Shown: positions 30,645 through 39,621 of the stretch, one piece after another
How positions within the stretch are numbered: the stretch's first letter is position 1
Layout: each line of letters starts with the position of its first letter
Assembly (NCBI GenBank): GCA_937139155.1
Contig: CAKZPI010000037.1
Location: 68,195 to 132,194, forward strand
Direction of reading: 5' to 3'
Source of the DNA: an uncultured Flavobacteriales bacterium
GTDB lineage: Bacteria > Bacteroidota > Bacteroidia > Flavobacteriales > JBLHRE01
DNA length: 64,000 bases
Notes under the pieces: model-generated
What the model was told of the DNA's origin: nothing
Seen by the model: only the letters and a program-made list of their open reading frames with translations
The model's database searches: none
Program-made: the position numbers and the translations under genes

Positions 30645-31393
30645 TTGAGAAGAAATGACTCTAAGAAAGGCAACTATTACTATGGAGCACGTTACTACGA
30701 CCTGAAGATTTCTGTGAATCCGTTGGCGCATAAATACCCCAGCCTTTCGCCTTATGTATTTACAGGTTATAACCCCATTATGTTGGTGGATCCGGATGGA
30801 ATGAGGATAGCTCCTAGAATGGATGATACCGATAAACAGTTAATTAATCTATTTACAAACGGGGACCAGGGAATGGCGGAAATGTTATTTTTCAGTCCGA
30901 AGGGTATCCAAAGAAAATAATAGTCAAAAAGTTAACCACTATGAGGCCAAGACGAAGTTTTGGACTCAACGTGGATTTAGTAGGCATGCTGAGAAACTAG
31001 GAATTGCCTTTTCAGGATCAGAGCTTGATGAAGCTTATGGTTTGTATAAGTTTGTAAGAAAAAAAAGTCACAGAAATAGCCATGCTCGAAACTGGAACGT
31101 CTGAACCTGGCACTGCGGTAGGGGTTGGGCCTCCTCGTACAAGAGGAAAAGCCTTTAAAAATGTCCTAGATTTACTTTCGGAAGGTCCAATAAATGAGCA
31201 AGATGAGGATGAGATTTTCTCAGAAAACAGTTTTGGTGGGGCAGAAATTAACAATGACGCCCTGTTTTTTAAAGATCGAAAAATCTCATTGAATAAGATT
31301 GATGGCATTATTTTAATAAGGGTTGATCCGACAATGAATTCTGAGGCAAAAACAGATATGATGAGACAAACCATAGATGATTGGGAAAAATAA
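30645..31393 (+). pseudogene. RHS cassette A: decayed RHS-associated core plus C-terminal toxin domain in three frames
   Basis: GNYYYGARYYD.KISV[WLSV lost]NPLAHKYPSLSPY...DPDG; stop 30920; frame +1 open 30844-~31066; A8 run 31059-31066 leads into the frame of ORF 31082-31393. Confidence 0.75.
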
Positions 31394-31400
31394 TGGATTT

Positions 31401-31964
31401 ATGTTTAAAACAATACCCCTTATTTCAGCAGGGATGCTAGTGGTCACATCCCTATTTGCACAAAATGTATCAGATAGTACCCATTTGGACACCTTTCATA
31501 TTACTTTGGTGGATACCAATTTTATCGAGCTTTCAGACGGTGATATGTTTGTGAAATTCAAAGACTCATTGCCGGATGGCTATTATATTTTGGATTGTTA
31601 CGATGATTTTGGAGGATTGTATCGAACCTATGAGATTAAATTTATTGAAGGATTACGTCAAGGGAAGTTTATCTCGGATGGTTGGGGCGCTAGGTCGACA
31701 TTCACTTATACCAACGACACATTGCAAGGCCCATTTTACGTACAAAACAGAGGAAAGCCCCCGTATATGTATGGGGACTATGTGAATGGAAAAAGACATG
31801 GGCTTTGGACCATTCTACCGTTTACTACACAGAATTCTGATGGAGACATGGTTAAGGGAATACAAATTTTGGAGTATAACCAGGGTGTGATTGTTAATCG
31901 AATTTTGATTCCGGCAACCTCCAGAAAAGTAGAAAGGTTTCTTGAGAAGTTGTATTGGGATTAA
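31401..31964 (+). CDS. Exported MORN-variant repeat protein (YwqK-like), putative immunity of cassette A; likely start ATG 31401
   Basis: Signal peptide MFKTIPLISAGMLVVTSLFAQ; repeats EGLRQGKF / NDTLQGPF / NGKRHGLW. Confidence 0.65.
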   Translation: MFKTIPLISAGMLVVTSLFAQNVSDSTHLDTFHITLVDTNFIELSDGDMFVKFKDSLPDGYYILDCYDDFGGLYRTYEIKFIEGLRQGKFISDGWGARSTFTYTNDTLQGPFYVQNRGKPPYMYGDYVNGKRHGLWTILPFTTQNSDGDMVKGIQILEYNQGVIVNRILIPATSRKVERFLEKLYWD

Positions 31965-32157
31965 GAGTGAAGCTTTACGGTGTGAATCGGAATGCTCAAT
32001 GGCAATCCTAAAGGATTAGATTTTTTCTTTTTCGAAGAACCTGTTCTTTATAAAAAGTGGAGTGTCTTAAATAAGGGAAGGGTTAGAAAAAGCTCTAGTT
32101 GGCAAAAGAAAACTTAATTAACGCAAAAAGGAAAATAGACTGCCGCTTCAGCAGTAA

Positions 32158-32247
32158 CGAGCTAGGAGCTTTCTAATATCTAACTATAAGGTATATATTC
32201 CCGGCACAAAAAGTTATGTTCCATATACTGAAAAATCAAGAGATTGA
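32158..32247 (+). pseudogene. C-terminal remnant of a JAB-like toxin gene
   Basis: RARSFLISNYKVYIPGTKSYVPYTEKSRD* resembles the tails of ORFs 34619 and 36241; its TGA overlaps the next ATG (TGATG). Confidence 0.6.
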
Positions 32248-32927
32248 TGATATTCTACCTTCAAGTTATAGGTCTTCTTTTATGCATTTGTCCAAATTTG
32301 GCTGCCCAGCCAAACTTGGAAGTTAAAAGGGGTAAGGACTCATGTGAATTCTTGGTTTTTGATGGTCAAATTTGGGCTGCAAGAGCCTTGGAATGGGACC
32401 AGATAACCGGAAAGGATAAGATCATCAAGGCTCAGGAAGATAGTTTGTGGATTGCGGCAAATGAAAACAAACGGCCGGCATATTGCATCGCGCCAGATTC
32501 AATAACCCAATTATTTAATGGATATGCGATGCCCTACATTTATGAGAACATAAATGATAGTAGCTTAAGGGTTGCAACGCAGTATGATTTTGAAAGGCTT
32601 TGGGGGTTTGAAAGGGATTCCTTAAGAAATTATGAAGACTATGTGAGAGGGGGTGTCTTACTGTTTTCATCCGATTCATGCTCATTTTATAGGAAGGGAT
32701 TTCAGTATTATAGGGATACAACAGGTCATTATAAAATGGGTGAAATTAAAAGTGTGGATTACTGGTCAATATCCGAATATATAGAATCCTATGACCCAAT
32801 GTTTAAAAGAGATGCACCAATTTTAATCCAGGTGGTATTAAATGGATGTTGTGCGCGGCTTATTGATGAAGATATAAACCCTAATATTGGCTATCCGGTT
32901 AGGCTGATAAAAAAAAGCTCAAACTGA
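32244..32927 (+). CDS. Exported FISUMP (Fib_succ_major)-like protein 1
   Basis: Signal peptide; DGQIW, W..A.....PAYC, LFNGYA, YWS, GYPVRLIKK. Confidence 0.7.
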   Translation: MMIFYLQVIGLLLCICPNLAAQPNLEVKRGKDSCEFLVFDGQIWAARALEWDQITGKDKIIKAQEDSLWIAANENKRPAYCIAPDSITQLFNGYAMPYIYENINDSSLRVATQYDFERLWGFERDSLRNYEDYVRGGVLLFSSDSCSFYRKGFQYYRDTTGHYKMGEIKSVDYWSISEYIESYDPMFKRDAPILIQVVLNGCCARLIDEDINPNIGYPVRLIKKSSN

Positions 32928-32993
32928 CTTTTGGTTTTATTTGTCATCCGTCCTATCACCTAAGACTATGAGCTAAATCACTAAGTTTAGCCT

Positions 32994-37733: not shown

Positions 37734-37866
37734 TAACCCATGCTTTGTGCGTATTTAAGTTTTTCAGGCCACTGATGTTTAGCCCTAGCAACCCTCAAGA
37801 AGGTAACCAGTAGCTTGAGTGCGGTCACTGCTATACCTATGATGCTAAATTCTTTACTTTTATGAC

Positions 37867-38691
37867 ATGCAGAGAATAGAGACAGGCAACTATTACTACG
37901 GAGCTAGGTACTACGACCCGAAAATCTCTGTTTGGCTTTCTGTGGACCCGCTGGCGCATAAGTATCCGAGTCTTTCGCCTTATAACTTTACTGAGAACAA
38001 TCCGATAATGCTTCTTGACCCTGATGGTCGGTCCAGCAATCCTATCTATGATTTAGATGGAAACTTTTTAGGTACAGATGATCAGGGCTTGCAGGGTGAA
38101 GCGCTTGTTATGCTTCCAGAAGATTTCTCGCAAGGAATGTCTCACGCCGAAGCCAAGGACAAAAATTTAGGGCTAAGTGCTTTACATCTTGACAATAATG
38201 GTGACTTTCAGGAAGGTAGCGGTGGATTGGATTATGACCGATTAGCTGAACACAATAATGGATTGAGCGATAGACCTGATTATGATGGTGTAGTTACATT
38301 GGAGGAAGCGCAAGAATGGAGAAAATCTGGAAATGGGGAGCCTCTTTTTGTGGATTTTTCAAAATTTAAATTTACATCAAGCAGTTTGGATGTTGGTGAC
38401 ATAGGCGAGAGCGGTGAGCAGTATGTCAACTTTTTTAGCAGTTTTAATATACATAGTGGTGATGACAACGTAATTTGGAGACCAGCTTCAGATGAAACAC
38501 TTTCTGATGTATATGGTACAGTGAAAATAAAATTGCTTAATCGAGATAATGGAACTGTTATAATTCCTCCATTTAATAATGCTGGTCATTTTGATATTTA
38601 TAATTTTAGGGGGTGGAGGAAATTACTTCGTGGATCAGGGGACGATTTCGGTTTTATTGGTTATGGAAAAGGTAAGATAAATCTTAAATAA
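37867..38691 (+). CDS. RHS cassette E: RHS core (from 37879) plus C-terminal domain of unknown activity
   Basis: ETGNYYYG...DPDG; CT begins NPIYDLDGNFLGTDD and contains DG.VTL.EA..W...G.GEPLFVD. Confidence 0.8.
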   Translation: MQRIETGNYYYGARYYDPKISVWLSVDPLAHKYPSLSPYNFTENNPIMLLDPDGRSSNPIYDLDGNFLGTDDQGLQGEALVMLPEDFSQGMSHAEAKDKNLGLSALHLDNNGDFQEGSGGLDYDRLAEHNNGLSDRPDYDGVVTLEEAQEWRKSGNGEPLFVDFSKFKFTSSSLDVGDIGESGEQYVNFFSSFNIHSGDDNVIWRPASDETLSDVYGTVKIKLLNRDNGTVIIPPFNNAGHFDIYNFRGWRKLLRGSGDDFGFIGYGKGKINLK

Positions 38692-38715
38692 TGTTTTGCC
38701 ATAGACCTCTAAATT

Positions 38716-39207
38716 ATGGATAAAAGTTTAAAATTATTTATCGAATTATTAGTTTTTACTGTTTTAGGGTGTTCAAACGGTCAGCATGCTATTATTGGAG
38801 ACCTTAAGGTTGAGGAAGAAAAATCTTACCGAGTTGGATTAATTGATGTCCATGAATTCAAGTTATATACAGAACAGCTTAGTTACTCTGAAATACTTGT
38901 CTACCCTGAACCGAAGCAAGGCTATTACACAACCAAATGGAAACCCAATAACTGCGACTCGTTAATATTTAAATCGCTTCGTGGTCAGGTTGACTACAAT
39001 TTGTCAGCAAGTCCAGGTGCTGATGAAGGTATTGGCATGCTTCTAGAAAACGCTGAAGATAAGCCCCATCAATTTCTAGTCGCAGGGTACTACAAGGTTT
39101 TAAAGGATGCGAGAAGTGATCAGGTAAGACTGTATGACTATGTTTATCTCATGGATACTGTGAATAGAAGATTTTGGCAAATAGATCTTTCTAAGCAATA
39201 TTTATAA
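38716..39207 (+). CDS. Lipoprotein, putative immunity of cassette E
   Basis: Lipobox VLGC; 24 bp after the toxin stop. Confidence 0.65.
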   Translation: MDKSLKLFIELLVFTVLGCSNGQHAIIGDLKVEEEKSYRVGLIDVHEFKLYTEQLSYSEILVYPEPKQGYYTTKWKPNNCDSLIFKSLRGQVDYNLSASPGADEGIGMLLENAEDKPHQFLVAGYYKVLKDARSDQVRLYDYVYLMDTVNRRFWQIDLSKQYL

Positions 39208-39294
39208 TAGGATTTTAACCTTTAGCCTGAGCCTTAATTTTAAAGTCATCCTTTGATATTATTAGATTAAGGGTGTTTACATAAGTTCCAAATT

Positions 39295-39621
39295 TTGAAA
39301 AAAGAAACCTTAAATAGCGCATGTAGGAAGTTAGGTTACCGCCTCAATGGCAAGGAGTTAGACCCTAAGACTGGCAACTATTACTACGGGGCCAGATATT
39401 ACAACCCGAAGATCTCTGTTTGGCTTTCTGTTGACCCCATGGCCTCAGAAAATAGTTGGCTCACGCCCTACAACTTTGTGCAGAACAACCCGCTTATGAG
39501 GGTGGATGCGGGTGGCATGGATTTGATTCCGTTCTATAAGAAAAAGGTATTGGGGGGATGTGAGAGGACTACAGGTTTAGATGGGTCATCATTCTTGGCC
39601 ACCAAATTGATCATGCCCTGA
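39295..39621 (+). pseudogene. RHS cassette F: degenerate core, toxin domain essentially absent
   Basis: YRLNGKELDPKTGNYYYGARYYNP...WLTPYNFVQNNP...DAGG, then only ~29 residues; overlaps the convergent gene end. Confidence 0.75.

Follow-up and report, generated by a model that had tools for sequence, protein, structure and literature searches.

A stand-alone array of probable orphan Rhs toxin modules with exported candidate immunity proteins in an uncultured Flavobacteriales bacterium

Rhs-associated cores, toxin domains, and partner genes of the array

We analyzed a 64,000-nucleotide stretch of DNA (here called the window; contig C37:68195-132194) from an uncultured Flavobacteriales bacterium, in which copies of the Rhs-associated core, toxin domains, and small downstream genes follow one another between 30.6 and 39.6 kb. 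Every open reading frame (ORF) of note in this array lies on the plus strand. The genome assembly comprises 3.0 Mb in 46 contigs, the ends of which overlap by k = 77, and is 99% complete. Because the array contig recurs in metagenome assembly ENA ERZ928089, the genome is probably a metagenome-assembled genome (MAG), and our statements that a gene is absent genome-wide carry this caveat. Judged by core sequence, the closest named relative is an uncultured Cryomorphaceae MAG; within our genome set, the organism is the sole species of its genus, and its family holds one incomplete relative. The features of the array are listed below, where "partner" denotes a gene in the immunity position and L1 and L2 are recurring leaders described later.

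30645-30920, plus strand: cassette A, 3' core remnant beginning at GNYYYG (30669), with DPDG at 30789-30800
30921-31393, plus strand: toxin-region debris of cassette A, a pseudogene with stops and frame changes across three frames
31377-31964, plus strand: A partner, intact ORF of 195 aa with a signal-like N-terminal segment; shares 17 nt with the last toxin frame
32244-32927, plus strand: lone FISUMP-like exported protein, 227 aa, no toxin in front; 31% identical to the C partner (BLASTP, 5e-28)
32975-33135, plus strand: stub B, L1 leader and 5' half of the core (…WGENLYKY…ETGNYYYG); homology stops at 33135
34571-35488, plus strand: cassette C, L2 leader (34571-34711), core joined at ETGNYYYG, Tox-JAB-1; ORF 34619-35488, 289 aa
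35493-36140, plus strand: C partner, exported FISUMP-like protein, 215 aa, candidate immunity; begins 4 nt past the toxin stop
36222-37146, plus strand: cassette D, L1 leader, nearly whole core, Tox-JAB-1; ORF 36241-37146, 301 aa, GTG start
37152-37733, plus strand: D partner, exported single-domain FISUMP protein, 193 aa, candidate immunity; begins 5 nt past the toxin stop
37867-38691, plus strand: cassette E, core from ETGNYYYG and a 216-aa toxin domain; ORF of 274 aa, ATG start
38716-39207, plus strand: E partner, putative lipoprotein of 163 aa (…VLGC…), candidate immunity; begins 24 nt past the toxin stop
39295-39621, plus strand: cassette F, truncated remnant with core from YRLNGKE; DAGG replaces DPDG, followed by a 33-aa tail

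Core copies were scored with the NCBIfam model TIGR03696 (Rhs-associated core; cut-off, 32.5 bits). Those of cassettes C, D, E, and F reach 55.2, 72.8, 53.3, and 65.1 bits (E values from 7e-15 to 2e-20), which is far beyond chance, and the core family of the array is the ETGNYYYGARYYDPKISVWLSVDPL family. The core of A, 4 codons short relative to the others, scores 27.0 bits and falls under the cut-off, and B has no TIGR03696 match, no DPxG motif, and no toxin. A first-pass annotation of this DNA had described six co-oriented core copies. Their places and plus orientation were recovered by a repeat search (families D1 to D4, with repeats of 60 to 171 nt), but B, which is 79% identical to 36222-36382 of D, has just the 5' half of the core, so that the array consists of five 3'-core cassettes and one stub. 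The same annotation had counted four distinct C-terminal domains after DPDG. Because C and D both carry Toxin-JAB1, we count three toxin families and three intact toxins; the A domain is split over three frames, and F has lost the DPDG motif. On the toxin side, C, D, and E are thus intact, and three of the six elements are decayed (A frameshifted, B a stub, and F truncated). F is of the same subtype as an intact cassette elsewhere in the genome (C33:1836-2492). The cassette ORFs span 91 to 301 aa and contain neither a YD-repeat shell nor an N-terminal secretion or trafficking domain.

The toxin domains of C and D match Pfam Toxin-JAB1 (PF15659; Tox-JAB-1) at 31 and 68.7 bits, respectively, against a cut-off of 21. 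Their toxin parts are 33% identical, and the JAB catalytic motifs NxxxE, HxH, S, and D are present in both (NTNVE, HNH/HSH, PSG, and GEWGD). The D domain has no close relative besides itself among 5.8 billion proteins. A search of 400 other Flavobacteriales genomes located Tox-JAB-1 in 19, where it forms part of full-length Rhs proteins as well as of short frames of orphan size. The E domain has no Pfam or NCBIfam model, and its 60 relatives, several of them named RHS proteins, come from Flavobacteriia and other Bacteroidota (Capnocytophaga, Aquimarina, Empedobacter, Flavobacterium, and Paludibacteraceae). Residues R136, P137, D138, D140, W151, L160, and G217 are invariant in this family and include the motif RPDYDG. 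An AlphaFold2 model of the E toxin is fairly confident (predicted local distance difference test, 77.6), and a Foldseek search of the PDB with this model returned no fold match. Four contigs encoding an identical E protein have identical neighbors around it. The toxin debris of A has no Pfam or NCBIfam match and no paralogue in the genome, and the toxin and partner genes of the window have no second copy there.

Exported proteins in the immunity position

The downstream gene was said to follow each toxin within 25 bp, which holds for C, D, and E, and the gene after A overlaps its toxin frame. All five immunity-position genes of the window are intact. Their products carry export signals as judged by eye, which suggests toxins that act in the cell envelope. 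The D partner matches PF09603 at 58.8 bits (cut-off, 33.9) and TIGR02145 at 44.9 bits (cut-off, 41.65); the C partner and the product of the gene at 32244 match neither model directly, though both are homologous to the D partner. The three are paralogues with 26 to 31% identity (BLASTP, 4e-12 and 5e-28). The toxins of C and D and their FISUMP-like partners have diverged in parallel (33% and 26 to 31% identity). A profile built from the FISUMP trio retrieves 7,405 proteins, and all seven that were scanned are multi-repeat PF09603 proteins. The D partner has no close homologues besides itself, the A partner has no relative in Pfam, NCBIfam, or PDB, and the E partner matches nothing in Pfam or NCBIfam and is unique in the genome. 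We considered a hidden JAB tail in front of the gene at 32244, where YKVYIP resembles YNIYVP by eye, and rejected it, as the likeness is not significant in hidden Markov model or BLASTP comparisons.

According to Zhang et al. (2012, PMC3482391), Imm65, the known partner of Tox-JAB-1, bears a lipobox in addition to a signal peptide. In the 19 other genomes with Tox-JAB-1, the next gene mostly encodes a protein of about 150 to 200 aa with a lipobox-type N terminus, and none of these genes resembles the FISUMP trio. The same is true of a full-length Elizabethkingia Rhs-JAB-1 gene, which is likewise followed by a lipobox-type gene that is not FISUMP-like. Ten of the lipoproteins encoded after JAB-1 in other genomes were scanned and none matched Pfam, so they are at most putative Imm65 proteins. 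Both Tox-JAB-1 cassettes of the array are paired with exported single-domain FISUMP proteins and not with lipoproteins as elsewhere, which we regard as the most useful lead from this locus. If these partners are immunity proteins, the FISUMP family, with its 7,405 profile matches, would gain a first role, and the JAB-1 toxin would most likely act in the cell envelope.

Probable parent gene and sister arrays elsewhere in the genome

Genome-wide, TIGR03696 matches 20 places, which are grouped in further arrays. Those with the core family of the window are the following.

C17:638-5377, minus strand: sister array
C33:328-5851, plus strand: sister array
C1:93437-94685: sister array
C26: remnant

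The first-pass annotation saw no YD-repeat body, VgrG, or PAAR in the window, and we agree. The window holds no Rhs body (its largest ORF has 793 aa), YD repeats (RHS_repeat) are confined to one gene on contig C9 and one on C30, and the genome has no type VI secretion system (T6SS) sheath protein VipB, no PAAR, and no VgrG. Its statement that no full-length Rhs is present is correct for the locus but not for the genome, as contig C30 encodes an Rhs protein that spans 2,967 aa or more and combines SpvB, FG-GAP, TcdB_toxin_midN, and RHS domains. The contig stops before the core of this gene is reached, and a metagenome version that adds 17 residues (at least 2,984 aa) also ends ahead of it. A shell tail on C17 is 63% identical to the C30 tail and continues, after a frameshift, into a pre-core and then a window-type core; moreover, C30 and reverse-complemented C17 end in an identical 77-mer. 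Because the C17 shell tail runs into this core and the 77-mer is shared, these sequences make it probable that C30 carries the full-length gene of the array's core family. The search for a full-length Rhs with the array core thus yielded a candidate with an unread core, and the other YD-repeat protein, a 1,750-aa FG-GAP/RHS protein on C9, has a core of a different family with its own orphans. Overall, the genome lacks a T6SS and maintains 20 or more copies of the Rhs core, with Rhs proteins of the SpvB/TcdB and FG-GAP types to serve them.

Several further observations concern these loci. Upstream of the giant Rhs gene (C30:12673-23305) lies a gene for a 565-aa DUF8202 (PF26628) protein with a signal-like N terminus, which may be an accessory of the giant toxin. 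The second Rhs family (FG-GAP and RHS; core NGRLYDPVVGRMLSKDP) is found at C9:4144-9393 (minus strand), C9:2162-2707 (minus strand), C1:166664-167560, and the end of C36; displaced tips of this family lie on three contigs. The C9 Rhs frame opens right after a stop codon about 70 nt from a contig end, and a repeat in that end is common to five other contig ends. A third core type (YRYGFQGQE…RFFAVDPL) occupies the two ends of the 4.2-kb contig C45 (C45:1-4226) in inverted orientation and is also arrayed at the end of C13 (C13:132589-136483).

A probable array of displaced Rhs modules

As had been proposed, the locus is built like the orphan modules of a polymorphic toxin system, with core fragments but neither a full-length Rhs nor a delivery gene in the window. 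Core fragments of the type ending in DPxG are present (C to F at 53 to 73 bits, A at 27, and the 5' half in B), and variable toxin tips are followed by small immunity genes, the latter recognized by position only. The common plan is a core piece of variable length ending in DPxG, a variable toxin domain, and a tightly coupled immunity-position gene. Lacking both a YD-repeat shell and an export part, no cassette is deliverable as it stands. We consider it probable that the stretch is a stand-alone array of displaced (orphan) C-terminal modules of the Rhs polymorphic toxin family.

The parent would be the giant SpvB/TcdB-type Rhs on C30, and the modules may have arisen through C-terminal displacement combined with horizontal gain of new tips. 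Some appear to have been copied between loci, because leader-plus-core units recur on C1, C17, and C33. Their main present role would be that of an exported-immunity bank against JAB-type and other Rhs tips of neighboring cells. In a second role, the intact cassettes C, D, and E could be rearmed by rare recombination of the cassette core with a full-length rhs gene, and A, B, and F would be decayed remnants. As far as sequence can tell, the immunity bank fits better as the present role than the swapping reservoir, because the partner genes are all intact with half of the toxin-side elements decayed and because recombination with a distant, divergent main gene would be rare. C-terminal swapping is further weakened as a role because the cores are short and divergent and the parent gene lies at another locus.

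Four observations weigh against an array of displaced modules. First, unlike classical loci, it does not lie downstream of a main rhs gene that is full-length and has a homologous core. Second, the C terminus of C30 is not assembled, so the shared core is deduced and not read. Third, the core DNA is only 59 to 89% identical over 150 nt (a range that leaves out A and B, whose ungapped values of 29 to 50% are alignment artifacts), and the longest exact runs, taken over all pairs, are 8 to 56 nt. In the activation of the Salmonella orphan, the shared region is 522 bp with 95% identity (PMC3967940); the core homology of the array is enough for occasional homologous exchange but far weaker than in Salmonella. 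Fourth, the canonical Bacteroidetes -7 box (TAnnTTTG) is absent within 150 nt upstream of every cassette and immunity-gene start. The only array gene with this box in that interval is yefM (38 nt upstream), which belongs to the insert described below, and a scan for sigma-70 promoters and terminators gave counts not above those of shuffled sequence.

The decay of half of the toxin-side elements also fits a pure graveyard, in which the debris of past C-terminal displacements or transfers persists through drift alone and serves neither immunity nor as a reservoir at present. The frameshift in A, the stub B, the truncation of F, the lack of convincing promoters, the unrelated element inserted in the array, and the high core divergence would all be expected of such debris. 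However, three toxin ORFs (274 to 301 aa) and five immunity-position ORFs have stayed open in DNA of about 60% A+T, both JAB copies retain their catalytic motifs, and the start/stop coupling of 4 to 5 nt is preserved. We therefore hold a pure graveyard to be unlikely, although it is the strongest of the alternatives.

Recurring leaders, fixed junctions, and the insert between B and C

Cassettes throughout the genome meet the core at a few recurring points, which raises, together with the recurring leaders, the question of cassette spread between loci.

WGENLYEY with leader L1: B and D in the window; C17:1547; C33:312; C33:4565; C1:94937
WGENLYEY with leader L3: C33:5588; C26
YRFNGKE, no recurring leader: F in the window; C17:3174
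ETGNYYYG, no recurring leader except L2 (C in the window and C1:93429): A, C, and E in the window; three more on C1 and C33

The L1 leader (AATCACTAAGTTTAACCTGTGAATCC…) reads H*V*PVNPxLTNQT, with in-frame stops (asterisks) and then a GTG. L2 has an ATG, and the L2 leader plus core of window cassette C is 92% identical to that at C1:93429 over 230 nt. In four places outside the window (C17:~1550-1750 on the minus strand, C33:112-312, C33:4365-4565, and C1:94740-94937), L1 cassettes follow a conserved spacer, about 180 nt long, that contains the hairpin GGGGAACTGGCGTTCCC(A/G)CCCC; this spacer is missing before B and D.

Between B and C, 1,435 bp of inserted DNA (33136-34570) interrupt the array. 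The insert has no other copy in the genome and is richer in GC (43 to 49%). It contains the following features.

33160-33513, plus strand: recombinase-like remnant, 117-aa frame with by-eye likeness to the C-terminal part of tyrosine recombinases
33586-33837, plus strand: yefM (Pfam PhdYeFM, 6e-7)
33834-34112, plus strand: yoeB (Pfam YoeB, 3e-21)
34113-34575: structured noncoding DNA of about 460 nt with three long hairpins (folding z = -4.68 versus shuffles), unique in the genome

The recombinase-like remnant has no match in Pfam, NCBIfam, PDB, or plasmids, and Rfam returned no match across 28 to 42 kb. Two inverted dif-like sites (…CCCTATAA-N5/7-TTATGTTAA…) lie at about 34277-34307 and 34381-34411; they are the only composite sites of this type in the genome and fall inside the insert, off the cassette borders. 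We rejected the idea that B and C were one gene split by insertion with a target-site duplication, since the 26-nt overlap is just 85% identical and the L2-core junction of C exists also at C1:93429.

Toxin-antitoxin (TA)-type genes are found in or beside Rhs cassette arrays at three loci. In addition to the window, C33 carries a YoeB-like frame and a P-loop zeta-like frame, the latter judged by eye (C33:5157-5399 and 5950-6510), and C1 carries a candidate antitoxin/toxin-like pair of small ORFs, also by eye (C1:92515-93116).

These features bear on the possibility that the cassettes are autonomous mobile units, each a leader (L1, L2, or L3) fused at a fixed core codon with a toxin and an exported immunity gene, and moved by an Xer or tyrosine recombinase. 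Relics of such a mechanism may survive in the hairpin spacer, the recombinase-like fragment, and the inverted dif-like pair. Together, the units would make up an integron-like system that handles polymorphic-toxin tips in a T6SS-less genome, a possibility to which we give a low probability. Slightly less probable still is the related proposal, made by analogy with rAID-1 of Bacteroidales, that the array is a defense island in which autonomous leader/partial-core/toxin/immunity units were gathered by a tyrosine-recombinase or Xer-type mechanism. L1 and L2 do recur at different loci and are joined to the core at fixed points, the hairpin spacer precedes L1 cassettes on C17, C33, and C1, TA modules adjoin cassettes at three loci, and the insert combines the recombinase-like remnant with the two composite dif-like sites. 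Yet the array and its immediate surroundings lack an intact recombinase, no profile recognizes the remnant, and the dif-like sites are within the insert rather than at cassette borders. Moreover, no att-like intergenic sequence is repeated inside the window array, and the unit junctions fall inside the coding core, as homologous crossovers would give.

Least probable is that the cassettes with start codons (C, ATG; D, GTG; E, ATG) yield short stand-alone mini-toxins, which would either work within the producing cell as addiction-type toxin/antidote pairs or be loaded in trans into an Rhs shell. The start codons of the conserved leaders (the GTG after the in-frame stops of L1 and the ATG of L2) agree with this proposal, as does the transcription of orphan Rhs toxins in Snodgrassella (PMC5727410). 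However, the scan for the -7 box gives it no promoter support, and a mini-toxin and its partner would be in different compartments, because the partners carry export signals and the mini-toxins none. Also counting against it, we know of no case of trans-loading of Rhs shells.

Flanks of the array

The first-pass annotation had placed the array between the terminator of an ahpC operon and a convergent gene, and both borders were found.

30433-30466, plus strand: left border, the intrinsic terminator that closes the ahpC-thioredoxin-DUF6952 operon; hairpin AAGGTCCTTGAATTCAAGGGCCTT and then T9, read directly
39611-39988, minus strand: convergent ORF of 125 aa, right border; overlaps the end of F by 11 nt

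The ahpC-thioredoxin-DUF6952 operon is also conserved in four further Flavobacteriales genomes, and in each of them the 1.5 kb that follow it hold no Rhs core. The right-border ORF has no family match in Pfam or NCBIfam and a single relative, at 30% identity, in metagenomes. A scan of genome contigs for comparable loci returned distant loci only. Beyond the right border, a 144-aa His-rich putative lipoprotein (window 40096-40530, minus strand) gives a subthreshold match to BSAP-5i (E value of 0.005; 16.9 bits against a cut-off of 150), which is probably meaningless.

Comparison with known systems

The orphan Rhs module model is established (PMC3967940, PMC5727410, PMC3482391), and orphan rhs-CT/rhsI modules form through C-terminal displacement according to Jackson et al. 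(2009), as cited in PMC5727410. The architecture is thus already well described, and the array extends it to an uncultured marine-type Flavobacteriales lineage. As in the rhs-orphan of Salmonella LT2 (PMC3967940) and the Rhs loci of Snodgrassella alvi (PMC5727410), the modules are headless, begin with a partial core, and keep the DPxG motif; each variable tip is followed by its own immunity-position gene, all share one orientation, and intact and decayed modules are mixed. Unlike these loci, the array is flanked by a peroxiredoxin operon on one side and by an unrelated convergent gene on the other, with no main rhs upstream, in a genome without a T6SS where the likely parent is an SpvB/TcdB-type Rhs. 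Its core homology is short and divergent, and its cassettes carry recurring non-Rhs leaders.

The array also resembles rAID-1 of Bacteroidales (Ross et al., bioRxiv 10.1101/471110) in being a co-oriented, somewhat low-GC array of immunity type located away from a delivery system. It differs in lacking a 5' XerD-like recombinase gene (no recombinase ORF occurs in 28 to 42 kb) and integron-like intergenic repeats, as the recurrences in the window are core repeats and the short L1 of B and D only, and in that its toxin genes are still intact. Cassettes C and D share with the Tox-JAB-1/Imm65 pair (Zhang et al. 2012, PMC3482391; PF15659) a JAB1 domain on an Rhs core, with all motifs, and an exported partner, but here the partners are single-domain FISUMP (PF09603) proteins. 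Lastly, the TcdB/TcaC type (SpvB, beta-propeller, and RHS) is a trafficking class listed for Bacteroidetes (PMC3482391), and C30 resembles these toxins in its SpvB, FG-GAP, TcdB_toxin_midN, and RHS repeats; the C30 protein, with its C terminus unassembled, is encoded outside the window, and the window itself holds tips only.

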